This document shows positions 1,980 through 42,115 of a stretch of 64,000 nucleotides of DNA, one piece after another. Positions within the stretch are counted from its first letter, which is position 1, and each line of letters starts with the position of its first letter. A program made the translations under genes and the position numbers. A model generated the notes under the pieces. The model was given only the letters and a program-made list of their open reading frames with translations. It was not told the origin of the DNA and did no database searches. Source of the DNA: an uncultured Bacteroidota bacterium (GTDB taxonomy: Bacteria; Bacteroidota; Ignavibacteria; UBA10030; UBA6906); contig CAVTJO010000006.1 in NCBI GenBank assembly GCA_963734955.1, positions 411,458-475,457 of the forward strand, given 5' to 3'.

Positions 1980-2020
1980 AGACACGAGGCGATAAGGCCT
2001 CGTGTCTTGGCTGTTTGTGT
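1980..2020 (+). terminator. Hairpin (11 bp perfect stem agacacgaggc/gcctcgtgtct, 6 nt loop) followed by a T-rich tract, between the TPR gene and mnmA
   Basis: Perfect inverted repeat seen directly in the sequence. Terminator vs attenuator function cannot be distinguished. Confidence 0.3.
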
Positions 2021-2047
2021 CCGGACTGTTGTTTGGAAACGACGAGT

Positions 2048-3151: not shown

Positions 3152-3355
3152 GCCCGCCTTTCATGGCTGCTGTCCCCAGTCGATACAGGGCAGGAGCCTC
3201 CCTTTGAGTGCGAGGAGCAAAGACATTTGAATGCCTCAGTAGGGCCGTCAGCGAGACCACTATCTCCGAACCGGTTCCCCAATGGCCTGTTCCTGTGATT
3301 GCACTTCGTTGTTGACTTTTCTATATTGACCGCGTCAAATTTCTGAGGTTCGCTC

Positions 3356-3577
3356 TTGCTCACACGTAGATTTCTTACCATTTATGGGATAGTCGGAATT
3401 GTCGTGATGGCGGTGTTGCTTATCCTTGTCGCCTTCAAGCTTGTCCGAACAGAGTATTTCCTCCCTCTCTTTCTCGTCGCATTTGTTATCTGGGCAAGTC
3501 GCATTGTGCTTCGTATGTTGATCTCACGGAAAGAGCGCGAGGAAGCGGCAGGCCAAAGTCAACCGCCGGCCAAATAG
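3356..3577 (+). CDS. Small hypothetical membrane protein (2 TM helices), TTG start
   Basis: 73 aa ORF with two hydrophobic helices and a charged C-terminus. No recognisable family. Confidence 0.3.
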   Translation: MLTRRFLTIYGIVGIVVMAVLLILVAFKLVRTEYFLPLFLVAFVIWASRIVLRMLISRKEREEAAGQSQPPAK

Positions 3578-3597
3578 TTCCATTATACAGACTTTAA

Positions 3598-4561
3598 ATG
3601 GTTCGTGTCGGCATCCTCGGCACTGCGAGAATTGCACGCGCATTCTTCGATGCCCCCTTGCACGGTGTTGAAATTTCGGCCATTGCCAGCAGAGAGAAAT
3701 CCAGGGGCGAGGCATTTGCCAAGGAGTTCAATATTCCCCTTTGCTGCGGCAGTTACGAACAGCTGCTGGCCGACCGCGCCATAGACGCCGTCTATATTCC
3801 TCTCCCTCAACATCTTCATTGTGAATATACGGTCAAGGCAGCACAGGCCGGGAAACATGTGCTCGTCGAAAAGCCGGCCGCGCTCACATCCACGGAAGTT
3901 CACTCGATGATCGACGCCTGCAAGGAACATAACGTGTTCCTCATGGAGGCATTCATGTATCGGTTCAAACGCATCCAGAAGAGGTTGAAAGAGATTGTCG
4001 TATCAGGAAGGATAGGGAGGGTGACGTACATCGATTTCAATTGGTGCTTCCATATAGGCACCTTGGCCCGCAGTGCCTTCAGAATGGATCCAAGAACGGG
4101 CGGAGGTGCGCTGTATGATCTCGGAATTTACGGGATCGATTTTATGCGGTATGTGACGGATGAGGAGCCGAAACTGCTTCATGCGCAAATCCACCGTGAC
4201 ACGCCTGACGGAGTTGATATGTTCTCTCACGCCGTGTTCTCCGTCGCCGGCGCAACGGCGACCGTCACGGCCTCCTTCACTACCGACGCGAACTACTATG
4301 CTGTGAATGGCGAGAAGGGATCCATCTATGCACGGTCGGCCCTTGCGGGTCGTCCGGTGGAAAACGTTCTTCAAATCCACTTACTCGGAGGTGATGAGTT
4401 GATTGAGGAGAGGGTTCCCGCCCGAGAATCCCTATATCAATGAACTCGAGTATTTTGCCCGATGTATTGCGGCGAACGAAAAGCCATTTCCCGATGCGGA
4501 GAACAGCCTCGAAAACCTTCGAGTGCTTGAAGAGGTCTTCGCAAGGGCCACGCTTGTGTGA
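3598..4561 (+). CDS. Gfo/Idh/MocA family NAD(P)-dependent oxidoreductase, interrupted by a frameshift near 4403-4440
   Basis: N-terminal Rossmann motif (VGILGTARIA...EKP). The last ~45 aa (NPYINELEYFARCIAANEKPFPDAENSLENLRVLEEVFARATLV*) continue in the +1 frame, ending at 4561. Confidence 0.75.
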
Positions 4562-22817: not shown

Positions 22818-23718
22818 ATGACGATGAGCCTGGTGAGAGAACACATCGTGTTTCGATTTGGGAAAAGGACATACGACCTTTCCAGCCGTACTCATTTGAT
22901 GGGCGTCCTCAATATCACGCCCGATTCCTTCTCGGATGGTGGGCGATTCCTCACACGGGAAGCCGCCAGAGAGCATGCCCTCCGCATGATTGACGACGGC
23001 GCTGATTTCATCGATGTGGGTGGCGAATCGACCCGACCCAGAGGCCAGGCATATGGCGAAGGAGCGGAAGCGGTATCGCTGGACGAGGAACTCGAGCGTG
23101 TCATTCCCGTTGTCGGGATGCTCGCCCGGGAAACTGATGTGCCAATCTCCATCGACACCTACAAGTCAGATGTTGCCAGGGAAGCGCTAAAGGCGGGGGC
23201 CTCGATCGTAAACGACATCAGCGGGTTCACGTTCGATCAGACAATGCCGGCCGTTGTTGCGGAAGCCGGCGCCTCGGCAGTGGTGATGCATATTCAGGGA
23301 ACACCGAAAACGATGCAGCAAAATCCATCGTACGAGGATCTGATGGGAGAGATTTGTGCCTTTCTTGATGCAGGGGTCGAGCAAGGGCAGACGTTCGGGC
23401 ATCACACAACTCATTGTCGACCCGGGTATTGGCTTCGGGAAGAGGTTGGAGCATAACCTGCAACTGATCGGGCACCTGCAGGAACTGGCCGCGCTGGGCT
23501 GCCCGATTCTCATTGGGCCGTCGAGGAAATCGTTTATCGGGACCGTTCTCGATCTTCCCGTCCACGATCGACTTGAAGGCTCGCTTGCTGCGGCAGTGGC
23601 ATGTGTGCTAAACGGGGCCAACATTCTCCGGGTTCACGATGTGAAAGCAACCAAACGTGCGGTGATGGTCGCTGATGCCATCAAACAAACAATGACGACT
23701 CCGAAGCAGGCAGGTTGA
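22818..23718 (+). CDS. folP: Dihydropteroate synthase, interrupted by a frameshift near 23380-23400
   Basis: GVLNITPDSFSDGG and DVGGESTRP in the first frame. DPGIGFGK and the C-terminal half lie in the second frame (ORF track pieces 22818..23456 and 23356..23718). Confidence 0.8.
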
Positions 23719-24539
23719 CGATGGAACTGTTCAAGATAGGGTTCCTTACGATAGGGCTGAACGATCTCATTGACATCGCGCTGGTGTCCGTGATATTCTA
23801 TCGACTCTATCTTGTCATGCGCGGTACCATTGCGGCACAGATTTTCATCGGCCTTGTCCTGATTATTGCCATCTCATTCATCGCTCAGGCAGCTAATCTC
23901 AAGGTGATGAGCTGGATCATGAGAACGCTCACTGATATCTGGGTGATTGCGTTTATCATTTTGTTCCAGCCGGAGTTGCGTCGCTTGCTCGTGCTCCTCG
24001 GCCGGAATCCTGTGGTTCGGTTCTTCGTGCGAGGAAATGTTGATGAGTCGGTTGACGACGTTGTTGCAGCAGTCATCGAGCTCTCGCGGAAGAAGCAGGG
24101 CGCATTGATCGTGTTCGTTCGTGCCACCGGAATCCGTGCACACGTCGAGACCGGCACGAAGATGGAGGCGCTTGTCAGCAAATCATTGATCCTGTCCATT
24201 TTCAATCCGAAGTCGCCGCTTCACGACGGGGCTGTGGTCATCAAGGACCGGCTGATTGAGGCCGCCCGCTGCACACTTCCTCTTTCCAACATCACGTCGT
24301 GGGAAGGAGAATTACTCGGAACACGACATCGATCGGGCCTCGGAATCTCTGAACAGGCCGATGTCGTTGTGGTAATCGTCTCAGAAGAGACGGGATCGAT
24401 TTCACTTGCTGAAAATGGCATCATGTACCGCAGCCTCACTCCTGCCAGCCTGAGGAAAGAACTCAAAGACCGGCTGATGCTTGAAACCGACGATCGATCT
24501 CTCGGTTCCATCTGGCGGATGATCAAGAACTCCAATTGA
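23715..24539 (+). CDS. cdaA: Diadenylate cyclase CdaA (c-di-AMP synthase)
   Basis: Three N-terminal TM helices, then the DAC domain (GALIVF, PLHDGAVVI, LGTRHRSGLGISEQADVVVVIVSEETG). ATGA overlap with folP. Confidence 0.85.
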   Translation: MTMELFKIGFLTIGLNDLIDIALVSVIFYRLYLVMRGTIAAQIFIGLVLIIAISFIAQAANLKVMSWIMRTLTDIWVIAFIILFQPELRRLLVLLGRNPVVRFFVRGNVDESVDDVVAAVIELSRKKQGALIVFVRATGIRAHVETGTKMEALVSKSLILSIFNPKSPLHDGAVVIKDRLIEAARCTLPLSNITSWEGELLGTRHRSGLGISEQADVVVVIVSEETGSISLAENGIMYRSLTPASLRKELKDRLMLETDDRSLGSIWRMIKNSN

Positions 24540-26241: not shown

Positions 26242-26316
26242 CGGGGCGTAGCGCAGCCCGGCTAGCGCGCTTGGTTCGGGACCAAGAGGTCGGGGGTTCG
26301 AATCCCCCCGCCCCGA
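26242..26316 (+). tRNA. tRNA-Pro (anticodon CGG)
   Basis: Cloverleaf folded by hand: acceptor CGGGGCG/CGCCCCG, D-arm GCGC-AGCCCGGCTA-GCGC, anticodon arm CTTGG-TTCGGGA-CCAAG, T-arm GGGGG-TTCGAAT-CCCCC, discriminator A. Confidence 0.85.
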
Positions 26317-26360
26317 CAAGATTTGTAGGCACTTTCGTCTCTCCCCCTTCGACCTTACCC

Positions 26361-26867
26361 TTGATTGCACCCTTGCCTGAACACTCGAAATGCACGGAGC
26401 AGTTTGACCGATTGGGCAGATGGTTTCACAGACTGAAGCATGTTGCGGAAGGATCGGAGAAGCCCCAGTCTGTTGAACTCCATCGGGATGATTACTTCGC
26501 ATTCTTCTTGAATTGCTATCACCTGAAGGATTGGATAAAGAACGACCCATCGGTACCACATTTGAAAGACTTGGTCGAAGGATACATTAACCAGTCGGTT
26601 GCGCTGAGTATTTGCGCCGACATTTGCAATGGTCTCAAACATCTCAAACTCAACAGCTCCCGAAGTGGCCTGAACCCAACGTTCGACCCTAAAGTGTACA
26701 CCCGAATTGAGATTGGGTCAAGGTCCAAGAGAGCGGGGATTGGATTCCTCGTTGCCACCGACAAGGGAGACCACGAAGCCTTCGATTTGGCATTTGAATG
26801 CCTAATGGAATGGGAGCTGTTTCTCGCAACTCCACCGAGTCTTGCTCAACATCTGTTGAGAAGATAA
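26361..26867 (+). CDS. Hypothetical ORF between tRNA-Pro and its partial duplicate; no in-frame ATG/GTG start (only TTG at 26361/26373/26412)
   Basis: Open frame runs through the tRNA from 26103. Only the downstream part could be a separate gene; possibly a 5'-truncated remnant. Confidence 0.25.
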   Translation: MIAPLPEHSKCTEQFDRLGRWFHRLKHVAEGSEKPQSVELHRDDYFAFFLNCYHLKDWIKNDPSVPHLKDLVEGYINQSVALSICADICNGLKHLKLNSSRSGLNPTFDPKVYTRIEIGSRSKRAGIGFLVATDKGDHEAFDLAFECLMEWELFLATPPSLAQHLLRR

Positions 26868-26896
26868 CATCGGATGTTGAGATTCAGATTCCAACC

Positions 26897-26967
26897 GGGC
26901 GCCTCCGGCGCCAAGGTCGGGGGTTCTGCCGAAGGGACGACCTCGTCGGAATCCCGCCGCCCCGACA
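26897..26967 (+). repeat. Degenerate direct repeat of the tRNA-Pro 3' half (anticodon-stem 3' side through acceptor end), with a 22-nt insertion in the T-loop, preceded by a GGCGCC-TCC-GGCGCC hairpin
   Basis: ccaag-gtc-ggggg-ttc-[tgccgaagggacgacctcgtcg]-gaat-cccgc-cgccccg-aca vs tRNA ccaag-aggtc-ggggg-ttc-gaat-ccccc-cgccccg-aca. Confidence 0.5.
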
Positions 26968-27233
26968 TGTACCACGTGTACGTTCTTCACAACGAATTCA
27001 CCCAACGATACTCCGTGGTTCCACCCAGAATGTGAGCAATCGTCTTCATGAGCGGTATATACCGCAAATAGAGCAATAGCAGCACATCGTGTGGATTCAT
27101 CGGACACGAAGATGCACCTGCAAACGCGATAGAATTGGCATCGATCTGATGAACACCAATACCCTGCTTTGTGTCCGTCAAGTTGCTTCCGTGACTTCAT
27201 TTTCAGATTGGAACGAAATACTACACTATGTGC

Positions 27234-27262
27234 TTGACAATTTTAGTCACATTTGGTACATT
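27234..27262 (+). promoter_or_regulatory. Sigma-70-like promoter TTGACA-17-TACATT upstream of the six-gene surface operon
   Basis: Exact -35 hexamer, 17 nt spacer, good -10, about 190 nt upstream of the first gene. Confidence 0.3.
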
Positions 27263-27449
27263 CGTACGAAGTCGAAATCTGATTGTTCTCACCATCTAGC
27301 TCAAGAATCGGGAAGCACACTACCTGCAAGTTCCACGAGTGTGGAGTGAAGGTCAACACTCCCGGAATGAAAAGTGGACGCGGATAAGTGGTCTCGAAGC
27401 TCATTCCACCCAGAATTGGCTGGTCTAATCACTTTCAGGAAGAGCCATT

Positions 27450-28136
27450 ATGTTTGCACCACACAGGAGATTTATTACCACACTCACGTTCTTGGGGGCA
27501 TGTTTGTCCGCTCTTTCCTTCTCTTGCAAGGAATACGATTACATTTCGCCGTCGCCCGGCATCCTTGAGGTTCGGTTGCGCACAAAGAGTACGGTTGACA
27601 CAAACTATGTGTCTTTTCCCTTGACGAATCCCGGAACAGGTACATACAGCTTTATGTATTCGATTCTGCGGAACATCATTGTCAAGGAACCGAACGGAGC
27701 TCAGATAGAACTTTTCTCCGACCTCCATGCCATCCGTAGAAATGACAAGGGAGACACCGTGAATTGTCTGGGCGAACTGGCAAGAGATTCTGCGTTTGTT
27801 CTAGGCATTGCGTACGCACCTCCGAAGACATTTACAGAGATCGATTTGCGAATCGTCCCGATATACGTGTTCGGGATTCAATTGATCCAGAGGTTTGGGG
27901 CCGACACATCCTCGATCTTTCTCGGGAACTTCATTCCATTGCGTCAGCCCAGCAGTCTCTTGGGGGATCTGAACCAGCTCCCCTATCCGAATCAAGCTCC
28001 GTTAAGTATTCCAGTACAGGAAGGGCACCTTACACGCGTGACGATTACGTTCGATCTGGACTCGGCTCTGGTGCGCAAGGCGGAGTGGTGCGACTATGTT
28101 CCTTACTTCTACGTTTCGTCAGTCCAGACTTTCTAA
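27450..28136 (+). CDS. Hypothetical lipoprotein (lipobox LGAC)
   Basis: Signal peptide with R-rich n-region, then L-G-A-C lipobox at residues 15-18. No known domain. Confidence 0.65.
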   Translation: MFAPHRRFITTLTFLGACLSALSFSCKEYDYISPSPGILEVRLRTKSTVDTNYVSFPLTNPGTGTYSFMYSILRNIIVKEPNGAQIELFSDLHAIRRNDKGDTVNCLGELARDSAFVLGIAYAPPKTFTEIDLRIVPIYVFGIQLIQRFGADTSSIFLGNFIPLRQPSSLLGDLNQLPYPNQAPLSIPVQEGHLTRVTITFDLDSALVRKAEWCDYVPYFYVSSVQTF

Positions 28137-28166
28137 GTACACAACCACGAGATCGGGTCATCGGCT

Positions 28167-30002
28167 ATGCATCGAACAATCAGGCAACCTGTTTTTCAGT
28201 TCTTCGCAATGGCTATTGCCATCGCAAGTGTCGTCCTCGTAGTATGGAGTTGCGAAAACCCCACAGGCCAGCTGTTGGGGAACTCGCCACCGCAAACGAC
28301 AATTGCCAACATTCCGGTCAACGATACATTGGCCGTCTACTTCAGGCTCGGAACACTTCCCGAGCAAACATTGTACTGGTCCGGCGGCGATCCGGACGGG
28401 TACGTGATCGGATTTCGTTATAAGTGGACGGATTCAACCCGTGGTGGTGCGGGGAGGAGTGCGGGGTGGACGACGCTCCTGAATGTGACGACATTCGGCG
28501 ACGGAAGTGCTGTGCCGAACACAATCCTCGTAAAAGGGACACCAAGCTCTCTTCTAAGGTTCTACCATTACTTCCAAACGTTGACGAATGTCGACACAAT
28601 TCGGATGATCGGAGATTCGCTGGTTGCCCGGGCAACCATCAGTGTTCCTTTTGGTCACGGGTTACCGGGAGACTCCGTCTATGGTGGAGACCCCGACGCG
28701 AACATATCTCCAAACCAGGGGACCTTTATTTTCGGTTCCCCAGACTCGGCGAACGTTCACCTCTTCCAAGTGGCAGCGATTGACAACAATGAAGCCGTCG
28801 ATCCCACACCTGCGTATGTATTCTTTTGGACGCAACAAGCGCCCGCACCAGAGGCGAGATTCGCAGCGGTTGCACGCAACCCGGCATCAGGAGCCACAGA
28901 CACACTCGTGCTTCGTGAAATAAACAGTCGTTGGGCCGGCATAAGAATAACATACTTTGCCGTTGATCCCAGCACTTTTGAACAGCAGTTTTCCTGGGCT
29001 GTTGACGATACGGTTACCCATCCCCCAGACGCGCCCGGATCTCGTTGGTCCCCATGGAGCGACGCCCAAGTCGCAATCGTGACTGCATCAAACTTTCTCG
29101 ACCTGACTACAGACTCTCTTATCACACACAAGTTCTTCCTGCGCGCCAAAAACCGGTGGGGCGTCATCAGTCCAACCGCTGAGACTACTTTTGTTGCCAT
29201 CCTGCCGGCGATCGACGACCCCAATTATCCTTCCAAGTTCCTCATCATTAATAATGATAAGATTGGGAATGGGACACGAGGGAATCCCGATACCACAACA
29301 ATCAACAATTTTTATCGAGGAATACTCCAGGAACTCAACATACCGGGGACTCTTGACCTCTGGACGACGGGATCACAGAGGAGCGGTGGGACGGTCACTT
29401 ACAGGATTCCCAGTCGAACGACCCTTACAAAGTATCGCGCAATTCTGTTCGTGTACGAACAACCTCCTCAAGGATTCGTCAATCAGGATATCCAAAGAAA
29501 GTTTAACAGTGTCAAGGAGCAGTCTCTCAGGGACTATCTCAATGTTGGTGGAAAACTCATCTTCAGTGGTCCACCGAACGCTGATTTGAATATCGACGCA
29601 TATTTGCCCCTTTTCGAGGGACAGTGGTCGTACGATGTTTTTCACATCCAGGGATATACCAAGAATCCGAATCGTGATTTCATCGGTGCAAGAGGAGTCT
29701 TGGGCTATCCGACAATCATGCTTGATACGTTGAAGCTTCCCGCTGACTCGGCAGATGGGATTCGAAACATAGCAATCAACATTCCTCGAACATTTGCCCA
29801 ATCGATTTCAGCGTTTGATTCTCGCACCAATGACCCGGCTTTCGAGAACCAGCCCGTTGGCATCCGTTACAAGGCTCTTCCCGAGCCGCCTGCGCGCGAT
29901 ACTTATTCGATGGTGTTTTTTGGTTTTCCTCTCTACTATGGTCAGAGAGACGCAGTGAAAGATGCATTGCGGCAAGCCATTGTGGATATCGGCTACCGAT
30001 GA
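28167..30002 (+). CDS. Hypothetical large exported protein / lipoprotein (611 aa)
   Basis: N-terminal signal/TM plus Cys (VVWSC). No recognisable catalytic motif. Confidence 0.65.
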   Translation: MHRTIRQPVFQFFAMAIAIASVVLVVWSCENPTGQLLGNSPPQTTIANIPVNDTLAVYFRLGTLPEQTLYWSGGDPDGYVIGFRYKWTDSTRGGAGRSAGWTTLLNVTTFGDGSAVPNTILVKGTPSSLLRFYHYFQTLTNVDTIRMIGDSLVARATISVPFGHGLPGDSVYGGDPDANISPNQGTFIFGSPDSANVHLFQVAAIDNNEAVDPTPAYVFFWTQQAPAPEARFAAVARNPASGATDTLVLREINSRWAGIRITYFAVDPSTFEQQFSWAVDDTVTHPPDAPGSRWSPWSDAQVAIVTASNFLDLTTDSLITHKFFLRAKNRWGVISPTAETTFVAILPAIDDPNYPSKFLIINNDKIGNGTRGNPDTTTINNFYRGILQELNIPGTLDLWTTGSQRSGGTVTYRIPSRTTLTKYRAILFVYEQPPQGFVNQDIQRKFNSVKEQSLRDYLNVGGKLIFSGPPNADLNIDAYLPLFEGQWSYDVFHIQGYTKNPNRDFIGARGVLGYPTIMLDTLKLPADSADGIRNIAINIPRTFAQSISAFDSRTNDPAFENQPVGIRYKALPEPPARDTYSMVFFGFPLYYGQRDAVKDALRQAIVDIGYR

Positions 30003-30033
30003 GCAATCTCTTTTTGAACCCGGAGATCTTCAA

Positions 30034-32845
30034 ATGAAAATGATTACTATTCGGCTCATTCTTCTTGCTCTTATCGTGACCGGGGCAGCGTATCTTGCCA
30101 TTGCCGGCGGGACGACGGGCATCGTCAAGGGAACAGTGACTGACATAAAATCAGGAGAGGCTCTCCCGCTTGTAAACGTTCTCATTGTTGGCAGTGGCCG
30201 GGGTGCCGTGACGAACGACAAGGGCGAGTATCAGGTGGTGGGGGTGACTCCCGGCGTCTATACGCTGAGAGTTTCATTGCTGGGCTATCAAATGTTGGAA
30301 GCCAAGAAGGTGGCAATTAATGCCGACGAAACCACCGTGATGAACTTCAAGCTTGCGAGCACAGAAATTCAAATGGAAGGCATAACCGTCGAGGGCACTC
30401 CACCGCTCGTTGATGTGACGAAGACTGCCGGAGATCAGACGTTTAATCAGGAGAAGATTGAGCAACTCCCCAATGTGAAAGGCTATGAAGATGTACTCAC
30501 GCTGCAAGCAGGAGTTGTGAAGTTCGGATCCAAGCTTTTTCTTCGAGGAGGTCGTGCCAATGAGACGCAGATTCTGGTCGATGGCGTTCCTGTAAATGAT
30601 GTCGGAGGGGTAACGGGAACGGCGGGAACAAGTACAGCAAACGAACAACTGCAAGCCCTCTACTCCGGGACAAGTTCGGGGGGTGCGCTTTCAGTCTCCG
30701 CGAATGCGATTCAATCCGTGAGCGTCTCGAGCAGCGGACTTGACGCGGAGTACGGCAATGCGCAGTCGGGAGTCGTGAATATCACGACAAAAGGTGGTGG
30801 AGACAAGTATGACGCTTCCGTCCAATACCGAACGGATGAGATAACGGCCTCAGGTTTCAACTCGCGATACTATGCCGCGAATGTGGGCGGACCCGAGCCA
30901 ATCACGCAATATCTTCTTCCCGAACTTGGCGTCGAATTTCCCGGGAAGATGACATTTTTCATGAGTTCAACGTTTGATCAGAATGATGGCCCGTATGGTT
31001 TCAATACCAACCAGTTTTATGATCCTTTGAAACGTAAGATACAGTTCTCAGGAGTGTTCGGCAGTATCTTCAACAATCTTGGCTTCACGTACTCCGATCA
31101 CCAGAACAATGAGTATTCGTACAACACGAAGCTGACCTATTCTGTGGGGGATAACGATCAGTTCTTCTTTCGTTATACGGCAAACGCCAGTTCCAACCAC
31201 GGGTTGGCTGGATCGTATTCATGGCGTGATCTTTCAGATTCCCTGGCTTCGACGGTCCAGTTGAAGACACAGAACATGCTGTACTGGACCCACATTCTGG
31301 GACAGAACGCTCTCTTGAGGTCGTACATTAGCAGACAGGAAAAGGTGGCGACCAACAGTGTGGGCAATCTCACGCCGGACCAGTACTCTATTGTGGGACA
31401 GATATAGGTGCCAGAGACCCCAACGGTGACGGATTCAACGACCTTGGGACATCGCAAAGTTGGTCCACGTCAAATGAGGTGGTTTGGAATGCAAAAGTGG
31501 ACTACAGCGCCCAGGTGCATGAGTACCATTTTCTGAAGACCGGCATTGATTTTTACTCGGAACATATTCAGTCGACAGCGATCTCCTTTCCCAATGACGT
31601 CCAGAGGGACACAAGTCGACGTGGTGCTTTCCCCGGCTACGGATTTGCCAGGTGGGTCGCGAACGATCTGCCGAGTCATGGAGCAATCTATGCTCAGGAC
31701 AACATCGAACTTACGGGGATCAATATCCATGTCGGGCTACGGTACGACTTCTTCTACTTGGGGAAGCAGGTGTTCGCTCCGGATTTCGTATCACGATGGG
31801 AAGTTCGCCACCGGCGAGAAAGCTGACTGGCTTGACCATAAGTCCTTCTTTTCACAGTTCATTCGCGGTAAGGTCAGCCCCCGGCTTGCAATAGGCTATC
31901 CGATATCCGAGCGTACCGTTTTCTATTTCAACTATGCGCATTTTCTCCAGTATCCTGACAGAGATCAGTACTACCATGACCCGATCAGTGACAAAATCAT
32001 AAGTGGAAACTATGTCGGGAAACCCGTCGTTGGAACCCATGAAAACGGTGCAGTACGAAGCGGGATTCGACCAGTTGTTGCTTGACGACCTTTCGCTCGG
32101 AATCCGTGGGTACTACAAGGATACGTTCAATGATATTACCACCCAGCCTGCACTCAGTTCTCCGGTCGGAATCTTGAAGTTTGTCAACTTCGACTACGCG
32201 AGTGCAAGAGGGTTTGAGATCATTCTTACCAAGCAGGAGAGAAATCATGTCCAGGGAAGCCTCGGGTACACATTCCAGTTGGCGAAGGGGCGCACTTCGG
32301 ACCCATTTGCTGCGACAGCAAGCCCTCAATTGAATGGGTTGCCGAGGGAAGTACGGCTCGATTATGATCAGCAGCATACGTTGAATCTGTTTCTCGGCTA
32401 CCGTGTTGGCCCGCGCGATGATTTCACGCTCTTTGGCATGCCGTTCAATGATTGGGGTGTGTCCGTGACCTGGAATTTCGGAAGCGGCTTCCCCTATACT
32501 CCCTACAATCAAGGAAGAACGTTACAAGATCTCTACCTGAAGAATACAGGAGACGGCCCGTATACATCGGAAGTCGGGATTTCCATGAGCAAGGGTTTCA
32601 GGGTTCTTGACAAACTTGGTCTTGTCTTCACCCTTGATGTCACGAATCTTTTCAACAGGAAGAATGTGGACATCAATGGAGGTGGATTTAATAGTGCGAC
32701 GGGTGCGCCGTATGTTTTTGGAGACTATAATCCGATTAATCCCAAAGACATATATGCCTGGAGATCGTTTGATTCAAGAGTGACGCCGTTTATTCTTAGA
32801 CCGCCACGTCAGATTCTGTTGGGCATGAAAATCAATTGGGAATAG
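30034..32845 (+). CDS. TonB-dependent outer-membrane receptor with N-terminal CarboxypepD_reg-like domain, interrupted by three frameshifts (near 31380-31410, 31780-31800, 32020)
   Basis: Signal peptide, GIVKGTVTD...GEALPLVNVLIV carboxypeptidase-regulatory fold, plug motif (FLRGGRANETQILVDGVPVND), barrel motifs across four ORF-track pieces. Confidence 0.75.
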
Positions 32846-32848
32846 ATT

Positions 32849-34996
32849 ATGACTCGAAAGACAAATCAATACGCGCTCTGCCTTCTCATCTTTGGTCTCT
32901 TTGGCTTCTTTCTCCCTGGCGCCGCTGCCAGAAATGAACCAGACAAAGTTCCTCCGCCGCCCCAAAGTCCCGCGGCAGGAGGAGGACAAGGAACGGTGGT
33001 CGAAGGTACAACCGATGCTCCTCATATCGTGCGCGTGAAGCAGGGCTACGGGATGAGACTGGAAATGGATAACAGCGGTGCGTTTGGTCATGTAATCTAC
33101 CCGCCGCGCGGAGGTACAACTCAGCCTCCTGATTCAATAGGTCTTGAGTACCCGGTCGGCAGCCAAATCGAGCACATCTTTGGAGGAGGTATCTGGGTTG
33201 CCGCCCAGGTTCTTGATACGGCGACCGGGACGAGAGTAAAGCGTGTGTCGACAGGATACGAAGGTTATGGTGGTGGTATAAACTCGCTCTTTGAGTTCAA
33301 CCCGGGACCGGATCTGGCAGATTCATTCTGGGTAGCAAAGAAAGGGGACTTGAAGCCACCGGGCTGGGATGGATATTGGGGGTCCACTTTTCCATTCAAG
33401 CCGATTTCGGACAATGACCTCTATTGCACCTACACAGATGACAGGTTCTCCGCGTTCAACCACGTTCCGATGCATGTGAAGATCATTCAGAAATCGTATG
33501 CGTGGTCCGATCCGTACGCCGAGGCGATCATCATCAATGAATACCAGATCGTCAATACTGGCACAAGGTCACTTGATAGCGTGTTCATCGGATTCTTTGT
33601 CGATGCTGATGTAGGTCCGATCAATGTGCCCAGCTATCAGTTAAACAACTTTACAGGTTACTATCCTGACGCAAAAACCGCATATATCCACAATCCCATA
33701 GACAGGGGTTCAACGCCAGTCGGTGTGACTCTGTTGTGGGCGAACGGACGAGATCTAACAGGACTCAGATATACGTTCCAGTGGTATCCGCTTGCCTCAA
33801 GCCCGATTACTGACCAGGCGAAGTACGATATGATGGCCTCGGGCGTGGTAAGGGCCGACGAATTTCCTTCGCTTTCCGACACAAGGTTCCTTTTTTCCTT
33901 CGGAACAAACAACACAGGGGGTTTCAGTATCAGGCCAATTTCGGATCCTTTTCCTGACACTCTCAAGATTGCGGTGGCAATTGTTTCCGGACAATCAAGG
34001 ACCAAGGACCCGCGTATCGTGATGCAAATAAACGCCCAGAGGGCTCTTGACATCTACCTGAATCAGGGGATACGGTTGCCGGCTACTCCACCTTCTCCTC
34101 CTCTGCGCGCTGAAGTCGGCTTCCGCAAGGTGACCCTCGACTGGAAGTGGAGGCCAGGAGACGACGTCGGAGGACCCGGGAGAGACCCACGGATCTATGG
34201 AAGGCCAGACCCCGAACAGAATTGGGACAGCACGAGCAAGGTTGCGCAACGCGACCCGCTCAGGCGCACAAATCCTCCTGCCGGTTATGATTCCACTCGC
34301 GGTGGGCGGAACTTTGAGGCATATCGCATTTGGCGAAGTGAAGACCCAGACTATCCGGACGCAAGCTTCACGCTTCTGAAGCAGGTCGATGTGAAGGTAC
34401 CGCCCGGCTATCCCGACAGTCTGAGTTTTGAGTACGACACGGGCCTGGAGTACTCATACGTCGATTCCAATTTGGTGCGGGGGCACACGTATGTCTATGC
34501 TGTTACCTCGAAATCGATTCCCAACCTCACCGAGCGGAGAAACCCCGACAGCACAATCACTCTTGTTCCCGTCGAGCCGCTTGAATCTTCCAAACAGGTT
34601 AATGCAACGCCAATTGGAAAGGACAAGCAGCTCCCATTTGCGACCTCGCAGCAGCTTGGAAAGGTCAGCGTTGTTCCCAACCCTTATCGCACCGATCAGG
34701 ACTACACCAAGGAGAGCGCAGGGTATGAGGGAAAGACAGGCGCCTGGAACGAGAACAGGCGCGTCATCAAGTTCATCAATCTTCCAGTGCGATGTACAAT
34801 CCGGATTTTCTCGCTCGCCGGCGATTTGGTTCGCACTGTTGAACATGACGGTAACGTGGGAACGACGTTCCCCTTTGGTGATGAAAACGTGCCCCTCGTG
34901 AGTGAGAGCAACCGTGCGCTTGCCAGTGGAATTTACATCTTCACCGTTGAATCCGACTTGGGAACCCAAACAGGCAAGTTTGTTATCATACGGTAG
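32849..34996 (+). CDS. Large secreted protein with C-terminal T9SS (Por secretion) sorting domain
   Basis: Signal peptide. The C-terminal ~90 aa (VSVVPNPY...IRIFSLAGDLVRTV...GIYIFTVESDLGTQTGKFVIIR) matches a type-A T9SS CTD pattern. Confidence 0.7.
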   Translation: MTRKTNQYALCLLIFGLFGFFLPGAAARNEPDKVPPPPQSPAAGGGQGTVVEGTTDAPHIVRVKQGYGMRLEMDNSGAFGHVIYPPRGGTTQPPDSIGLEYPVGSQIEHIFGGGIWVAAQVLDTATGTRVKRVSTGYEGYGGGINSLFEFNPGPDLADSFWVAKKGDLKPPGWDGYWGSTFPFKPISDNDLYCTYTDDRFSAFNHVPMHVKIIQKSYAWSDPYAEAIIINEYQIVNTGTRSLDSVFIGFFVDADVGPINVPSYQLNNFTGYYPDAKTAYIHNPIDRGSTPVGVTLLWANGRDLTGLRYTFQWYPLASSPITDQAKYDMMASGVVRADEFPSLSDTRFLFSFGTNNTGGFSIRPISDPFPDTLKIAVAIVSGQSRTKDPRIVMQINAQRALDIYLNQGIRLPATPPSPPLRAEVGFRKVTLDWKWRPGDDVGGPGRDPRIYGRPDPEQNWDSTSKVAQRDPLRRTNPPAGYDSTRGGRNFEAYRIWRSEDPDYPDASFTLLKQVDVKVPPGYPDSLSFEYDTGLEYSYVDSNLVRGHTYVYAVTSKSIPNLTERRNPDSTITLVPVEPLESSKQVNATPIGKDKQLPFATSQQLGKVSVVPNPYRTDQDYTKESAGYEGKTGAWNENRRVIKFINLPVRCTIRIFSLAGDLVRTVEHDGNVGTTFPFGDENVPLVSESNRALASGIYIFTVESDLGTQTGKFVIIR

Positions 34997-35035
34997 TCAT
35001 CGGCAACAAGTCACCAGCACAAAGAGAGTATTACG

Positions 35036-35977
35036 ATGAAACAATCATTTACAAGAGCTTCAATTGCAACGATCCTTTGCATGATCTTTGCAGTGTGTGG
35101 GACACGCGCTGGTAACAGGTCTGGTACCGTGTCTGGTGAGTTCCTCAAATTGCCTGTTAACGCGCGCGTTACGGCGATAGGCAATGCCCAGGTGGCGTTG
35201 GCGGAGGGAGCGTCTTCTATCGCGTACAACCCGGCTGGAATTCTCAGTGTTTCCACCGCTGCGTTTGGCGGGACGTACAACAAATGGATCGCAGATATTA
35301 CTCATTCCTTTTTTGGCGTCGCGGTAAATCTCCAGGAATGGGGTACTGTGGGTGCAGGGGTCATGTTCTTGACCACTGACGACATGGCGGTAACCACTCC
35401 GCAGTTTCCTGAAGGCACCGGAGAGTTGTTCAAGGCGAGTGATTTTGCGTATACGTTAACGTATGCGCGCCAGATCAGCGAAGACTTCGGATTGGGGTTG
35501 AGTGCCAAGTACATCAAGTCATATCTCTACAACTCTGAAATCAAGGCAAGCTCAATAGCGTTTGATATCGGTTCCCTCTATGATATCCCCGCACTCCGAA
35601 CCCGTCTTGGAATATCGATCAATAACCTTGGGAAGGACCTCAAGTATATCAACGAACAATACTCGATTCCTTCTGCATTGCGCTTTGGTGCCCGCATAAC
35701 TGCATATGAAGAAGAGAATCATTTGGTCTACATTGCCCTGCAAATTGCTCGTCCCAACGATGCCAATGAGCAATACAATGCCGGTGTGGAGTACACATTT
35801 CAGAAGATCGTCTCTCTCAGAACCGGGTACCGGTTCAACTATGACACGGAAAACTGGAGTGGTGGCATCGGCCTCAGCCTCGAAAGTCTTGGCATCCATG
35901 GTTCGCTTGACTATGCCTACACGAACTACAAATATTTGCCAGGCACTCACATGTTCTCAACTGAAATAGGATTTTGA
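35036..35977 (+). CDS. Putative outer-membrane beta-barrel protein (PorV/FadL-like features; T9SS-associated?)
   Basis: Signal peptide, alternating amphipathic strands, C-terminal Phe (TEIGF*). N-terminal FLKLPVNARVTAIGNAQVA..YNPAG resembles PorV-family conserved N-termini. Family call is tentative. Confidence 0.5.
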   Translation: MKQSFTRASIATILCMIFAVCGTRAGNRSGTVSGEFLKLPVNARVTAIGNAQVALAEGASSIAYNPAGILSVSTAAFGGTYNKWIADITHSFFGVAVNLQEWGTVGAGVMFLTTDDMAVTTPQFPEGTGELFKASDFAYTLTYARQISEDFGLGLSAKYIKSYLYNSEIKASSIAFDIGSLYDIPALRTRLGISINNLGKDLKYINEQYSIPSALRFGARITAYEEENHLVYIALQIARPNDANEQYNAGVEYTFQKIVSLRTGYRFNYDTENWSGGIGLSLESLGIHGSLDYAYTNYKYLPGTHMFSTEIGF

Positions 35978-35979
35978 GT

Positions 35980-36834
35980 ATGCTCAAGCTCGCGAGAAAT
36001 TTCTCAGTTTTTGCGACGATGTTGTCCGTCCTCCTGACGGGTTGCGAAATTACATCCGAATCACCGACACCTCCCGACTTGAGACCTGCCCCGCACATGG
36101 TTATCAATGAAGTGTTTACACTACCATCAACGAGCCAGACGCCGTATAGTTGGATCGAGTTCTTGAACCCCACGAGAGATACCGTGGATATCGGAAACTG
36201 GACCCTTTCGTTCAGTACGTTCAAGCAACGAACGAGAACGGTTGTCATCGTCGATTCATTGTTCCAGTTCAGGCTTTTCGTTTCACAGACCAGCTTCCAG
36301 CCAGAGTTTGGGACTTTTGATGTCCCGTTCGCCAAGGGAGTTTCCTTTGAGTCAATTGGAATTCAGGATACGGTTTTAATACCACCCAATGGACTCTACA
36401 CAATCGTAACGAATGAACAACGTCTGCTTGATCATACACAATGGGGTCCAGGTCCCTCTTCTTCGCGTTTCGAGAGACCGCTCTACGCCACTCTTGACTC
36501 CGCCGTCATTGTCCAGTATGTCAATGCAGATAGCGTGATTGTCGCAACTTATCAAACCATCTATGGGGCTCAACTACAGACCACCGATCAATTGTTGCTG
36601 AAGGATCAGAATGGAAACGTGATGGATGTTGTACGGTATGGCAACTACACGTATCAGGGGCCAGGGACTGATCCATACAGTGGAAATCACACAATCGGAG
36701 CCGTACCGGAATTCCAATCCATTGCCAGGTATGCAGGAGGTTATTTCACTGGTAACACTGCGTTTGATTTCTATGTGACCAGGGATGACCTCCCACCCAT
36801 TCCCAATTGGTACAGTCAGGCGTATCGTCGTTAG
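35980..36834 (+). CDS. Lamin-tail-domain (LTD) lipoprotein
   Basis: Lipobox LTGC. LTD signature VINEVF...YSWIEFLNPTRDTVDIGNWTLS. ORF track starts at TTG 35974, overlapping the upstream stop. Confidence 0.65.
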   Translation: MLKLARNFSVFATMLSVLLTGCEITSESPTPPDLRPAPHMVINEVFTLPSTSQTPYSWIEFLNPTRDTVDIGNWTLSFSTFKQRTRTVVIVDSLFQFRLFVSQTSFQPEFGTFDVPFAKGVSFESIGIQDTVLIPPNGLYTIVTNEQRLLDHTQWGPGPSSSRFERPLYATLDSAVIVQYVNADSVIVATYQTIYGAQLQTTDQLLLKDQNGNVMDVVRYGNYTYQGPGTDPYSGNHTIGAVPEFQSIARYAGGYFTGNTAFDFYVTRDDLPPIPNWYSQAYRR

Positions 36835-36934: not shown

Positions 36935-37546
36935 TCAGAACATCGATACATCCCCTGCTCCCGCACGCACCACACGAGGTGTCTCACCGGTAAGATCAAT
37001 GACTGATGAGGGTTCTGAGACCAGCGCCCCGGCATCGATGATTGCATCAACCTGATTGTTAAACTTCTGACCAATGGCGTCGGGATCGTTCATCAGGCTT
37101 CCGTCTTCGAACGAGACGCTCGTGCTCAGAATTGGATGCCCGAGCTCTTTGACCAACGCGAGAGTTATTGGACTGTCCGGCACTCTGATCCCCACGGTCT
37201 TTCGCTTCGATACCAGAATTCTCGGCAATTGTTTCATTTTCGCCGCAGGCAACACAAATGTGTACGGCCCGGGAATGAGATGCTTCATGACCTTGAACGC
37301 TGCGTTGCCGACGTGTGCGTACTCGCTAATATGGGTCAGGTCTGAACACACGAAGCTATACGGTTTGTCCTTCCGCTGCCGTTTGATCAGGTAGATCCGC
37401 TCGATTGCACTCTTGTCTTCGATGCTGCAACCGATTCCGTACACCGTATCGGTCGGATAGATCACAATTCCGCCTGCGCGGAGGATCCCCACTGCCTTCG
37501 TGATCAGACGCGGGTCAGGAGTGACAGGGTGGATCTTGATTACCAT
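36935..37546 (-). CDS. tsaC: L-threonylcarbamoyladenylate synthase (YrdC/Sua5 family)
   Basis: YPTDTVYGIGC...KxRxxxKPxSFV...RxPD YrdC signature. Confidence 0.85.
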   Translation of the reverse strand: MVIKIHPVTPDPRLITKAVGILRAGGIVIYPTDTVYGIGCSIEDKSAIERIYLIKRQRKDKPYSFVCSDLTHISEYAHVGNAAFKVMKHLIPGPYTFVLPAAKMKQLPRILVSKRKTVGIRVPDSPITLALVKELGHPILSTSVSFEDGSLMNDPDAIGQKFNNQVDAIIDAGALVSEPSSVIDLTGETPRVVRAGAGDVSMF

Positions 37547-37588: not shown

Positions 37589-40129
37589 CTATTTCAGGAG
37601 TAACATCCTGCGAGTCTGGCTGGACCCTCCCGCTGATAGTGTATACAAATACACTCCGCTGGCGAGTCGTCGCGCATCGAAGGTCGTTTCGTACGTTCCT
37701 CCCTTCAACACACCCTCTATAAGGGTGGCGACCTGACTTCCGCGCACGTCGAAGATTTGTAAGGTGGTCTTTGTCCCGGACTGAGCTTCAGGCACAACGA
37801 ACTTGATGACCGTTGTAGGGTTGAAAGGATTGGGGAAATTCTGCTCGAGTGTGAATCCTTGTGCCACCGTGCCGGACGTCAGTCGCACCGACGTAAGTCC
37901 GGTGAGGTCGACCGCCCAGGACGAGCGACCATGGGAAAACGCGAACAACCTGCGGGTGGGGGAGTGAAGTGTCAAGTCATGAACGGGGGCCTCCGGCATC
38001 CCGGTTCCGAGGACGATCCATGTTGCCCCCATGTTGGTACTGTACACAACGCCTGCGTCTGTGGCGACATACAGGTTTGGGCGATACACCGGATCGACGA
38101 TGACATCGTTCAAAGGAATATTGGGAAGGTTGCCGCCGATGTTGATCCAGGATTGGCCGTAGTTCGTGGTCTTGTAGATGTGTGCATCGGAGAGATCCTC
38201 CAGGTATCCCGAGAGTGTAACGTACGCGACGTTTGCGGAGTCAGGGTCGACCGTGACCCGGGTTACCCAATGAACCGGCAGGGAGCCTGTAACGTCATTC
38301 CATGTTGTGCCTCTGTCTGTTGTGACCGACACCTTCCCGTCATCCGTGCCGACGTAGACGACGTTGGAGTCTGAGTTTGCTACATCAATCGTTGTTATTG
38401 TGCCGATTCTCCCGTTCGCGCCGCGTGTCAGGTCGTCGCTGATTGCAGTCCAGCTCTGCATGCCGTTGGTCGTTCGGTACATGCGCTGTGTTCCGGTGTA
38501 GAGGGTCAACGGTGAGTTGAAGTCCAATGCGATGGGGGTGCACCAGTTCTTTCTATCAGTCGAACTGATGCCGGAGGTCCCATTTGAGAAGGATGTTCCG
38601 CCATTGACGGAATATCCCAATCCGCCATTCTGAGACTCGGCATAGACGCGATTCGAGTTTGTGGGATCAACAAGTGCGTAAAACCCATCGCCGCCATAGA
38701 TTGACTGCCAGTCGTTCGTCGACCCTGTGAGTGTGCGTGGGGTCCCGTTATCCTGCAGCCCTCCAAGGATTCGCTGTGGATTCTGGAAGTCGACGGTGCC
38801 TGCATAGAACTGAGAGATCGGGAGGTTGAGTGATTTTGTCCACGAAGATCCCGTTGTCGTCGAAGTGAAGACACCCCCGTCGTTGCCCACGACGACCCTT
38901 GCGGGATTTCCAGCGTCAAATGCTATCGCGTGGTGGTCAACGTGCATTCCGTTAATGCTCGTCCAGGTCGAGCCGCCATTGGTAGACTGATAGAACCTCG
39001 TCAACCCGAGCAGGAGAAAATCAGGATTGGCGGGATGGATGTCGATAATCAAGTTGTACCACGATTGTCCTTCGTTGTTGAATGTGCTGGTCGAGACGGT
39101 TGCCCAGGAATCGCCGCTTGTTGTTGATCTGTAGACGCCCATAACGCCTGTTCCGTTTGAGACAATCGCGAACATGATGTTCGGCTGTGACGGTGCAACG
39201 GCGAGGCACATTCGTCCGATGCTCGGATTGTTGTTCGGAAACCCGTTGGTAACCTGAGACCATGTATCGCCGGCATCAGTTGAAAGGAAAAGACCCGAAA
39301 CCGCACTGCTTATGACGCTGTAGGTCAATGGTCTGTAACGCGTCCACATCCCTGCGAGGACGCGATTGGGATTTGAAGGGTCAATCATCACATCGCAGGC
39401 GCCCGTTGTATCGTCAACGAACAGGATGCGTTGCCATGAGGTACCGCTGTCGGTTGATCTGTACACTCCGCGTTCCTGAGTTCTGCTTCGATACCGCCCG
39501 AGTGCTGCGGCAAAAATTCTGCTCGGTGCCGACGGGTGGATGGCGATTCGTCCAATCTGTCCGGTCGCAGTGAGGCCAAGGTTGGTCCACGTTTGTCCGG
39601 CGTCAGTCGAACGCCAGAGTCCATTCCCCGGGTAGATTGCGACTCCTCCCGGATTCGCTTCTCCGGTTCCGACGTAAACAACTTGAGAGTTGGTTGGGTC
39701 AAGGGTGATGGATCCTATGGTAAATGACTGGCTGAACATATTTGTCCATGTTCCACCGTTATCTGTCGATTTCCATCCTCCTCCGGAAGCCGCTCCCATA
39801 TAGATCACCGAGGAGTTCGTTGGATCGAGCGCAATCGAGGTAACACGTCCACCTACATTCGAAGGTCCGACACTGGTCCACGTCGGCAGGACTATCGCCG
39901 GATTGTCTCGAGCCATCGCTCTGAATTGCGCTCTTGCTGATTCATACAATGCCGGGCTGATATCATCGTGAGGATACACACGCTGTAGCATGAACCAATC
40001 GTTATCCAACGCTTCTGCTTCCTGCGATGGTGTATATGTCTTTGGGTTTGGCACTGCGGTCACAATGAAGACAAACGCTCCGATCAGGAGAATGAAGACG
40101 CTCTGCATTACTTCTCTGGACACCATCAT
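37589..40129 (-). CDS. BNR/Sortilin-Vps10-type repeat protein (glycosyl-hydrolase-like beta-propeller) with C-terminal T9SS sorting domain
   Basis: More than 10 S-x-D-x-G-x-T-W BNR motifs. C-terminus NFPNPFNP...SGVYLYTLSAGG...RRMLLLK. GAGGAG RBS before ATG 40129; ORF track extends to 40228. Confidence 0.8.
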   Translation of the reverse strand: MMVSREVMQSVFILLIGAFVFIVTAVPNPKTYTPSQEAEALDNDWFMLQRVYPHDDISPALYESARAQFRAMARDNPAIVLPTWTSVGPSNVGGRVTSIALDPTNSSVIYMGAASGGGWKSTDNGGTWTNMFSQSFTIGSITLDPTNSQVVYVGTGEANPGGVAIYPGNGLWRSTDAGQTWTNLGLTATGQIGRIAIHPSAPSRIFAAALGRYRSRTQERGVYRSTDSGTSWQRILFVDDTTGACDVMIDPSNPNRVLAGMWTRYRPLTYSVISSAVSGLFLSTDAGDTWSQVTNGFPNNNPSIGRMCLAVAPSQPNIMFAIVSNGTGVMGVYRSTTSGDSWATVSTSTFNNEGQSWYNLIIDIHPANPDFLLLGLTRFYQSTNGGSTWTSINGMHVDHHAIAFDAGNPARVVVGNDGGVFTSTTTGSSWTKSLNLPISQFYAGTVDFQNPQRILGGLQDNGTPRTLTGSTNDWQSIYGGDGFYALVDPTNSNRVYAESQNGGLGYSVNGGTSFSNGTSGISSTDRKNWCTPIALDFNSPLTLYTGTQRMYRTTNGMQSWTAISDDLTRGANGRIGTITTIDVANSDSNVVYVGTDDGKVSVTTDRGTTWNDVTGSLPVHWVTRVTVDPDSANVAYVTLSGYLEDLSDAHIYKTTNYGQSWINIGGNLPNIPLNDVIVDPVYRPNLYVATDAGVVYSTNMGATWIVLGTGMPEAPVHDLTLHSPTRRLFAFSHGRSSWAVDLTGLTSVRLTSGTVAQGFTLEQNFPNPFNPTTVIKFVVPEAQSGTKTTLQIFDVRGSQVATLIEGVLKGGTYETTFDARRLASGVYLYTLSAGGSSQTRRMLLLK

Positions 40130-40292
40130 GATTGCTCCTCGAGTGTGGTGAAACTTGGCTTGTTCAAAGTACGCAGTGTTTCGAAGAGTAGCAAGACTCA
40201 TCTCGCTACCAACCGTGTGCAATGTCATTCCGTGAGATGATGGTGTGCCTTTTGTTCTTGTTTCTCAAAGAATTTCTTGTAGATTCTCAGCC

Positions 40293-40805: not shown

Positions 40806-42115
40806 ATGTCACGGTCCTTGGTAGCAATCGTCGGCCGTCCCAACGTCGGCAAGTCGACATTGTTCAATCGGATTATCGGGCAACGCAATGCGATTGTGCA
40901 CGATGATCCGGGCGTTACGAGGGATCGCCATTACGCCGATGCGGATTGGGCCGGCAGAACGTTCTCTCTTGTCGATACCGGTGGGTACGTCCCGGCGTCG
41001 GAAAATGTCATCGAAGCTGCAATTCGCGAGCAGGCTGAGGTCGCCATCGATGAAGCAGATGTCGTCTGTTTGTTGTTGATGGAGAGACAGGCCCTATGCC
41101 GGCAGACATCGAAATAGCTGGCATTCTGAGAAAAGCGCAGAAAAAGGTCGTCCTTATCGTCAATAAGATTGATAGCGAAAAACGCGAGCCTGCACTTGGG
41201 GAATTTTACAGGCTGGGGCTCGGTGAACCCATTCCAACATCGGCCCTCCTCGGGCGTAAGACCGGCGACCTCCTGGACATCATCACCGCGGATTTTCAGG
41301 AAGGCGAGATGGATGATTCAGACCGTCGCCTGAAGATTGCAATTATCGGCAAACCCAACGTTGGTAAATCCTCCCTCGTCAATGCACTCCTCCAACAGGA
41401 ACGCAATATTGTGACACCTGTTCCAGGAACCACTCGCGATCCGATTGATGCAGTCCTGAAATATTTCGGCGAGGAGATTGTCCTCGTTGACACTGCCGGA
41501 CTGCGGCGAAAAAGCAAGATCAAGGAGAGTGTGGAGTTCTTTAGTACTGTACGAACTCTCAAGAGCATTGAGCGGTGCGACGTCGCCGTGGTGATGATTG
41601 ACGCCCAACAGGGGCTGGAGCATCAGGACTTGAGGATCATCGAGACAGCGGTTGAACGCAAACGGGCGGTGGTCATAGCAGTGAACAAATGGGATGTGAT
41701 CGAAAAGGATGACACGACCGCCAAGACACTTGAGAAAGCTCTCAAGGAGAAATTGCGCATTTATGATTTCATTCCAATCATCTTTATTTCTGCACTTGTC
41801 AAGCAGAGAATCTATAAAGTAATCGAGCTGGCAAAGATGGTGGATGCCGAGCAAAACAAACGCATTGCCACCAGCGAGCTGAACGATCGCCTCCGAACGG
41901 ATATCGAACTCTTTCCTCCACGCAGCAGATCCGGGAAGGAAATCAAGGTCAACTACGTCACCCAGGTAAATTCAAAACCACCGGTGTTTGCATTCTTCTG
42001 CAACGAGCCCACCCTGATTGATGATAACTACCGGAGATATCTGGAAAACAAGATCCGGGAACATTTCGTATTCAGCGGTGTTCCGGTTGTGCTGTCGTTC
42101 AAAAAAAAGAACTGA
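40806..42115 (+). CDS. der: Ribosome-biogenesis GTPase Der (EngA), interrupted by a frameshift near 41060-41085
   Basis: Two GTPase domains ([12 protein letters not shown] and [12 protein letters not shown]). [21 protein letters not shown] continues in the -1 frame. Confidence 0.8.

Follow-up and report, generated by a model that had tools for sequence, protein, structure and literature searches.

We analysed a stretch of 64,000 nucleotides (the window) from an uncultured Bacteroidota bacterium of the GTDB lineage Ignavibacteria; UBA10030; UBA6906 (GenBank assembly GCA_963734955.1, contig CAVTJO010000006.1, positions 411,458 to 475,457) and describe an operon of six genes, g1 to g6, that encodes envelope proteins only and occupies positions 27450–36834 of the + strand. 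It brings together a TonB-dependent transporter (g3), three lipoproteins (g1, g2 and g6), a protein of the kind exported as cargo through the T9SS (type IX secretion system; g4) and an outer-membrane β-barrel of the PorV/PorQ family (g5). All of these parts are of known kinds, and it is their fixed combination that is new. We regard the existence and the conservation of the operon as nearly certain. As to its function, which we infer, our preferred reading (probability roughly 0.45) is that the operon encodes a single surface complex for capture and import, in which g4, delivered by the T9SS, docks onto g5 next to g3.

Organisation and conservation of the operon

The six genes are co-directional and tightly spaced, as the initial annotation had stated: the gaps from g1 to g5 measure 30, 31, 3 and 39 nucleotides, and g5 and g6 overlap by 4 nucleotides. 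Its statement that every product carries a signal peptide or a lipobox also proved correct at the start of all six. Table 1 gives the coordinates.

Table 1. Features of the operon; positions are those of the window
Feature	Position	Strand	Basis
Promoter, sigma-70-type, TTGACAA-N15-TTTGG-TACATT	27234..27262	+	Consensus match and conservation in related loci
5' leader, ~187 nucleotides, with CACCATC box (27290-27296) and GGTC-loop hairpin (27343-27362)	27263..27449	+	
g1, 228-residue lipoprotein, putative distant DUF4382-like β-sandwich	27450..28136	+	
g2, 611-residue lipoprotein, FN3/Ig-like N-terminal domains and non-catalytic GATase1-like (ThuA/IFT52-GIFT-like) C-terminal domain	28167..30002	+	
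g3, TonB-dependent transporter with CarboxypepD_reg N-terminal extension, plug and barrel; three frameshifts	30034..32845	+	
g4, 715-residue T9SS cargo-type protein	32849..34996	+	
g5, 313-residue PorV/PorQ-family outer-membrane β-barrel, terminal Phe	35036..35977	+	
g6, 286-residue lipoprotein with lamin-tail domain	35974..36834	+	

We compared gene order across 78 species-representative loci. The order g1–g6 is complete in 18 of these, at least 17 are compatible with it but cut by the end of the contig, and four more run from g1 to g5 up to the contig end. Among close relatives (loci L001–L005), every long contig examined has the six genes in this order, and synteny holds down to 36% identity of g4. 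Conservation of gene order had been proposed as a check on the operon, and the synteny found is strong. Purifying selection acts strongly on each of the six genes, the ratios of nonsynonymous to synonymous substitution rates (dN/dS) being about 0.04–0.10. Profile searches of the loci yielded no operon members that had been missed. We also looked for a cultured isolate that carries the cluster, and all listed loci and named top matches are metagenome-assembled genomes (MAGs). In the literature on the gene combination, on DUF4382 and on the T9SS of Ignavibacteria, we found no description of the cluster.

The g4 protein has numerous homologs in Ignavibacteria, Ignavibacteriales, Kryptoniota and MAGs labelled 'Bacteroidota'; those at E ≤ 1e-30 fall into 488 clusters when grouped at 50% identity. 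In 22 loci, g4 occurs as solo or tandem paralogs (tandem in L046, L047 and L066; solo in L032, L034, L053, L054, L065, L073, L078 and L079, among others). Such additional paralogs are present in several MAGs of the Ignavibacteria type and reach four loci per MAG. Locus L077 has g4–g5–g6, with g1–g3 absent from the 6.9 kb upstream. Locus L049 was considered as a second g4–g5 cassette and dropped as independent evidence, since over a segment of 3.2 kb it is 96% identical to L064, and the g5 of the two loci is the same (100% identity).

The cargo-type protein g4 and the barrel g5

Behind its signal peptide, g4 is composed of a variable linker, a head (residues ~60–405), an FN3-like domain and a C-terminal domain (CTD; residues ~596–715). 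The head is predicted to adopt a galactose-mutarotase-like β-supersandwich. This fold is typical of carbohydrate-binding or -processing modules. Residues E108, H109, D197, N282, D322 and D344 of g4 are invariant. The CTD, which the initial annotation had assigned to type A, is the most conserved part of the protein and has, behind the PNP motif, an insert that is conserved. The window copy itself stays below the cut-off of the sorting-domain models (TIGR04183 / PF18962; 18.5 bits versus 23), but the assignment is supported by the family, of which 31 out of 53 members match, and by the fold, since the modelled C-terminus superposes on the CTD region of PorZ. Head and FN3–CTD tail are also found apart from one another, in other architectures, and the tail is the part common to the additional g4 paralogs mentioned above.

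The second partner, g5, had been described as a PorV-like β-barrel ending in Phe, and the family model NF033709 bears this out (192.9 bits versus a cut-off of 90), as does the Pfam PorV model (39.6 versus 27). The protein also matches PorV of Flavobacterium johnsoniae (Protein Data Bank (PDB) entry 6h3i_F; E = 3.5e-6). It fails the equivalog models of both PorQ (NF033711; 100.7 versus 220) and PorV (NF033710; 84.5 versus 250), and likewise the PorP/SprF model TIGR03519 (19.4 versus 90.55 bits). Among the six products g5 is the most conserved, with orthologs that are 65–78% identical, and its gene always directly follows g4.

A cargo protein paired with a FadL-type barrel, an idea already raised in the initial annotation, has precedents: in PorZ–PorQ, a CTD-bearing surface protein is held by a barrel (PMC10947112), and SprB is held by SprF according to the same principle (PMC9143113). 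The g4–g5 pair resembles these two and PorU–PorV in that a CTD-bearing surface protein is combined with a barrel of the FadL family. The CTD of g4, its most conserved part, looks functional, like those of PorZ and PorU. The head of g4, however, is unrelated in fold to the propellers of PorZ, the peptidase of PorU and the repeats of SprB, and g5, unlike the barrels of the known pairs, fails the specific models for PorQ, PorV and PorP/SprF. Also in contrast to the known pairs, g4 and g5 share an operon with a TonB transporter and three lipoproteins.

A further parallel is offered by BamG–BamH of the Bacteroidota β-barrel assembly machinery (BAM) complex, where BamG acts as a docking platform (PMC12578637). 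There, as may hold for g5, a FadL-family barrel is a dock for surface-exposed proteins. The cluster nevertheless has neither BamA nor BamD, g5 falls into the PorV/PorQ branch, and the partner of g5 carries a T9SS CTD in place of a lipid anchor.

The TonB-dependent transporter g3

The domains that led the initial annotation to call g3 a TonB receptor of the CarboxypepD_reg type are present; a single open frame is not, and in the window g3 reads in four frame segments. Pfam matches on the fragments comprise CarboxypepD_reg, the plug (PF07715; on the first fragment, 31.1 bits versus a cut-off of 23.9) and the barrel (PF00593; 55.1 bits on the last fragment and 75.6 bits on the full-length ortholog of L001). 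Among 22–38 orthologs, the plug motifs LFLRGGRANE and GNAQSG..NI.TK vary little or not at all. For the TonB box expected between N-terminal extension and plug, EGITVEG...LV is a candidate, with only moderate conservation. When the g3 profile was compared with the PDB, it matched in the N-terminal extension and plug only. The SusC/RagA model TIGR04056, with a cut-off of 368.25 bits, reaches 41.5 bits with the L001 ortholog and 21.8 bits with the fragment in the window, and a scan of g3 against NCBIfam matched no T9SS-labelled model.

The lipoproteins g1, g2 and g6

The lipobox cysteine is retained throughout all three families: Cys26 of g1 and Cys24 of g6 in 26 of 26 orthologs each, and Cys29 of g2 in all 42 homologs. 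The initial annotation had taken g2 for an exported protein, correctly as far as export is concerned, and had overlooked this lipobox, which makes g2 a lipoprotein. In g1, the mature N-terminus follows the conserved pattern C-x-x-Y-[DE]-Y-x-S-P-x-P-G. DUF4382 (PF14321) matches 12 of the 26 g1 orthologs at E ≤ 0.05 (8.9e-8 at best), while the window copy itself has no match to it.

For g2, modelling predicts FN3-like repeats followed by a GATase1/ThuA/GIFT-like domain. This C-terminal domain was checked for the Cys-His-Glu triad of class I glutamine amidotransferases with a negative result, and we call it non-catalytic. The lamin-tail domain of g6, as annotated, is confirmed by PF00932 (40.3 bits versus a cut-off of 34.3) and is found in 19 of the 26 orthologs. 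In more distant lineages, g6 is longer (~600 residues), with a BNR/Ycf48-like propeller added.

Sequence or profile searches of g1, g2, g4 and g6 against the PDB returned nothing significant. With g2, the g4 head and the clade of g1, the operon defines three protein families for which Pfam and NCBIfam contain no model and whose folds are now predicted with confidence. The earlier remark that the members other than the receptor lack a recognisable catalytic motif is superseded by the fold assignments, namely mutarotase-like supersandwich, GIFT/ThuA-like, lamin-tail and DUF4382-like.

A proposed model for surface capture and import

According to the mechanism that we favour, g4 would be exported through the T9SS and kept at the surface non-covalently, its unusually conserved CTD remaining attached to g5 as its dedicated barrel. 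Jointly, g4 and the three lipoproteins would build a capture platform around g3. This platform would capture a glycan-type ligand and pass it to g3 for TonB-powered import. A glycan is suggested as ligand because the folds of g4 and g2 are carbohydrate-associated, and the occurrence of varied g4 heads on a constant tail and anchor fits a family of ligand-binding modules. The initial annotation had proposed a new surface module that joins TonB-dependent import and the T9SS and differs from SusC/SusD; the module architecture and its synteny stand, and capture or uptake is a function that we infer.

Several observations weigh against this model. Two or more acidic residues after the lipobox cysteine, the surface-export signal of Bacteroidota, are present in only about one-third of the lipoprotein orthologs, and the exposure of g1, g2 and g6 at the surface is therefore uncertain. 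The contacts between g4 and g5 and between the lipoproteins and g3 are putative. The barrel of g3 is very distant from solved transporters, and its reading frame is not intact in the window. Genes for a ligand, an enzyme or TonB/ExbBD are absent from the operon and from the approximately 40 of some 60 open reading frames (ORFs) of the window that were scanned. Finally, the cluster appears to be near single-copy and lineage-wide and is situated among housekeeping genes, unlike nutrient-specific polysaccharide utilisation loci (PULs).

TonB transporters with lipoproteins and T9SS cargo on FadL-type barrels are two surface hallmarks of the Bacteroidota and the Fibrobacterota–Chlorobiota–Bacteroidota (FCB) group that have been studied separately. 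The operon unites both architectures in one transcription unit, which is kept across many deep-branching uncultured lineages. If its products form one complex, this would be a new way to build a surface device for capture and import.

A T9SS module as the main rival

The main rival explanation holds that the operon is a late-stage or attachment module of the T9SS, the counterpart of PorF, PorZ and PorQ of Porphyromonas gingivalis, and thus serves housekeeping rather than nutrient capture. We consider this possible but doubtful. Equally doubtful is the division of labour that goes with it, by which g3 would import or handle a glycan for the attachment of T9SS cargo and g4–g5 would present that glycan. 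The T9SS of P. gingivalis needs PorF, a TonB-receptor-like protein whose role is unexplained; the mutant phenotype groups with those of porQ and porZ, and glycan import has been proposed (PMC12704123, PMC5445135). PorZ binds carbohydrate and retains its CTD (PMC8754138).

The protein g5 speaks for this explanation in that its best specific model is the PorQ equivalog, at 100.7 bits, although the cut-offs of the PorQ and PorV equivalogs are both missed. Similarly, the PorZ-like CTD is what is most conserved in g4, and models of PorZ or PorU give weak matches in 6 of the 53 family members, but the head is a supersandwich where PorZ has a double β-propeller. A cluster that occurs once per lineage, strongly constrained and among housekeeping genes, fits a T9SS module better than a nutrient PUL; the many solo and tandem paralogs of g4, on the other hand, are not expected of a machine subunit. 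In addition, the operon has no sortase-like (PorU) gene, and no counterparts of g1, g2 and g6 are known from the T9SS.

The equation of g3 with PorF is itself putative. PorF (PG0534 / Fjoh_0118) is TonB-receptor-like and tied to late T9SS steps and to the phenotypes of PorQ and PorZ, and g3, compared with it by description, is a receptor whose gene is linked to those of a PorQ-like barrel and a CTD protein. The two differ in size (~92 kDa for PorF, ~105 kDa for g3), and in P. gingivalis the genes lie scattered instead of forming an operon. We think it rather improbable that the cluster is a lineage-wide machine in which a TonB transporter is physically coupled to the T9SS through a PorQ-like anchor and a CTD-retaining glycan-binding subunit, that is, an ancestor or analog of the scattered PorF, PorZ and PorQ. 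Were a T9SS-coupled role true, the operon would for the first time offer a genetic and structural approach to the need of the T9SS for the TonB-receptor-like PorF.

Frameshifts in g3

The four frame segments of g3 emerge from three-frame translation and from tblastn with intact orthologs. Nucleotide alignment to L005, which is 92% identical and has an intact gene of 935 codons, places insertions of +2 at ~31395, +1 at ~31804 and +1 at ~32020. Orthologs of 930–1005 residues are intact in all other loci.

Three independent indels within 625 nucleotides could mean that g3 is a true pseudogene in this genome and that the operon is in decay or, after rewiring, functions with no import. A dip in the synonymous substitution rate (dS) marks the same stretch as unusual: relative to L005, dS falls to 0.22–0.23 between the frameshift sites (31395–32020), compared with 0.43–0.49 on either side. 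This patch of low dS could stem from a chimeric or strain-mixed assembly or from recombination. However, the frame-corrected g3 has a dN/dS of 0.039 relative to L005, the lowest of the six genes (0.059–0.101 for the others), and no stops except those caused by the shifts.

Frame disruption is also found elsewhere in the window. The gene folP (22818–23720) is frameshifted near 23400, with the DPGIGFGK motif running on in another frame, and der/engA (40806–42115) changes frame at ~41070–41117. The MAGs of L064 and L082 show similar fragmentation. Because essential der and folP are frameshifted as well, and because the dN/dS of g3 is the lowest, we read the breaks in g3 as assembly errors; most likely they are assembly indels rather than biology, and a pseudogene is improbable. 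The pattern suggests that the source assembly is prone to indels, possibly as a long-read assembly.

Possible export by an Oar-like transporter and the SusC/SusD comparison

A weaker third option is that g3 works outward in the manner of Oar, in the export or assembly of a polymer or protein layer at the surface, for which the lipoproteins and g4–g5 would be assembly factors. Oar is required for the secretion of PopC (PMC6434023). Like g3, the Myxococcus xanthus protein is a large TonB transporter with a CarboxypepD_reg-type N-terminus, a large divergent barrel and no evident role in nutrient uptake. Yet Oar has no link to the T9SS or to PorV-like barrels, and g3 has no known secreted substrate. 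The housekeeping-like distribution of the cluster would suit such a function, as would the GIFT-like domain of g2, which is of the type found in GldG (PMC9582644). An ATP-binding cassette (ABC) transporter follows g6 in 7–8 distant loci, but this link is limited to one lineage. Since the plug motifs of g3 are of the typical importer type and the cluster has no conserved companion gene for a substrate, a glycosyltransferase or a polymerase, we regard outward transport as quite unlikely.

Our preferred capture-and-import complex has features in common with SusC/SusD utilisomes, in which a TonB transporter with a CarboxypepD_reg extension is likewise co-transcribed with several lipoproteins and with accessory proteins of carbohydrate-associated fold. 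It differs from them in having neither a SusD-like lid nor a SusE/F-like protein nor a glycoside hydrolase, and in possessing a T9SS-delivered accessory protein with its own PorQ/V-like barrel; moreover, SusC/SusD systems are substrate-specific and multi-copy, whereas this cluster appears to be single-copy and lineage-wide. Pfam and NCBIfam scans of the six products gave no match to SusD, SusE/F, a glycoside hydrolase, a peptidase or a further T9SS core component, and in g4, encoded directly after the transporter, no SusD was found by hidden Markov model (HMM), its predicted fold being supersandwich, FN3 and CTD; the absence of SusD, SusE and peptidase assignments holds by HMM and by fold. Despite the SusC-like extension of g3 and the carbohydrate-associated folds of g4 and g2, an ordinary SusC/SusD-type PUL or peptidase locus is effectively refuted by these results, by the failure of g3 with the SusC/RagA model and by an apparently single-copy cluster that is not one of a multi-PUL family.

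Promoter and 5' leader

The sigma-70-like promoter of the initial annotation held up. Its TTGACA and TACATT, separated by 17 nucleotides, match the consensus more closely than any other site in the region (10 of 12 positions, with TG), and the relaxed pattern (TTGACA, 15–19 nucleotides, TANNTT) has two matches in the whole window, one of which is this promoter. Promoter-like sites overall are not above chance in number in the region. In 10 of 11 related loci, an element TTGACAA-N15-TTTsCTACATT is situated 146–226 nucleotides 5' of g1, and apart from this element the intergenic DNA of the 11 loci cannot be aligned.

Between the window and L005 the leader is ~96% identical, compared with ~75% for the DNA 5' of the promoter and a dS of 0.3–0.55 for the genes. 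The CACCATC box and the GGTC-loop hairpin recur in other species, and the stem sequence of the hairpin differs between them. A comparison of leader folds across species yielded this one shared hairpin and otherwise no single common fold, and no Rfam family matched the leader. It may be an unrecognised cis-regulatory element. The box lies ~25–35 nucleotides past the −10 element and is often accompanied by another copy near +5; leader elements were seen 5' of g1 in L001, L005, L006, L013, L016, L018 and L019.

Neighboring genes

The operon is flanked in the window by housekeeping genes. The next gene after g6, Sua5/YrdC (36935–37546), is convergent with it. Clustering of flanking genes across the loci revealed no universally conserved seventh gene, only lineage-specific recurrences. 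In 20 more distant loci (among them L035, L039, L041, L042, L045, L048, L050, L051, L060 and L062), a gene of ~360–410 codons with a Reg_prop (two-component regulator propeller) repeat is located directly upstream of g1 and divergent from it. The ABC transporter found after g6 in 7–8 distant loci comprises an ABC ATPase and a PF16949 (ABC_tran_2) protein.

Positions 37589–40228 (− strand) encode an 879-residue Sortilin/BNR-repeat protein, convergent with the operon. The protein carries a Por_Secre_tail domain (30.8 bits versus a cut-off of 27), which indicates that T9SS cargo exists in this genome; core T9SS genes were not detected among the window ORFs scanned. Sortilin/BNR-CTD homologs occur downstream of the cluster in 14 loci, and elsewhere a BNR/Ycf48-like propeller is fused to g6. 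The Sortilin/BNR-CTD protein may be a loosely associated seventh component.

Upstream, a tRNA-Pro (CGG) gene is located at 26242–26317, ~0.9 kb 5' of the operon promoter, and the intervening stretch (26318–27233) holds only an ORF of 132 codons on the − strand (26802–27200), which has no Pfam match. At the far end, a second TonB-dependent-receptor-like gene (62600–64000, − strand) runs out of the window and matches the g3 profile weakly (E = 6e-12). In L003, positions 1371–4552, just 5' of the cluster, encode a 217-residue protein followed by an 846-residue CarboxypepD_reg TonB-receptor-like protein, a pair that may represent a simpler paralogous module of the g1–g3 type.

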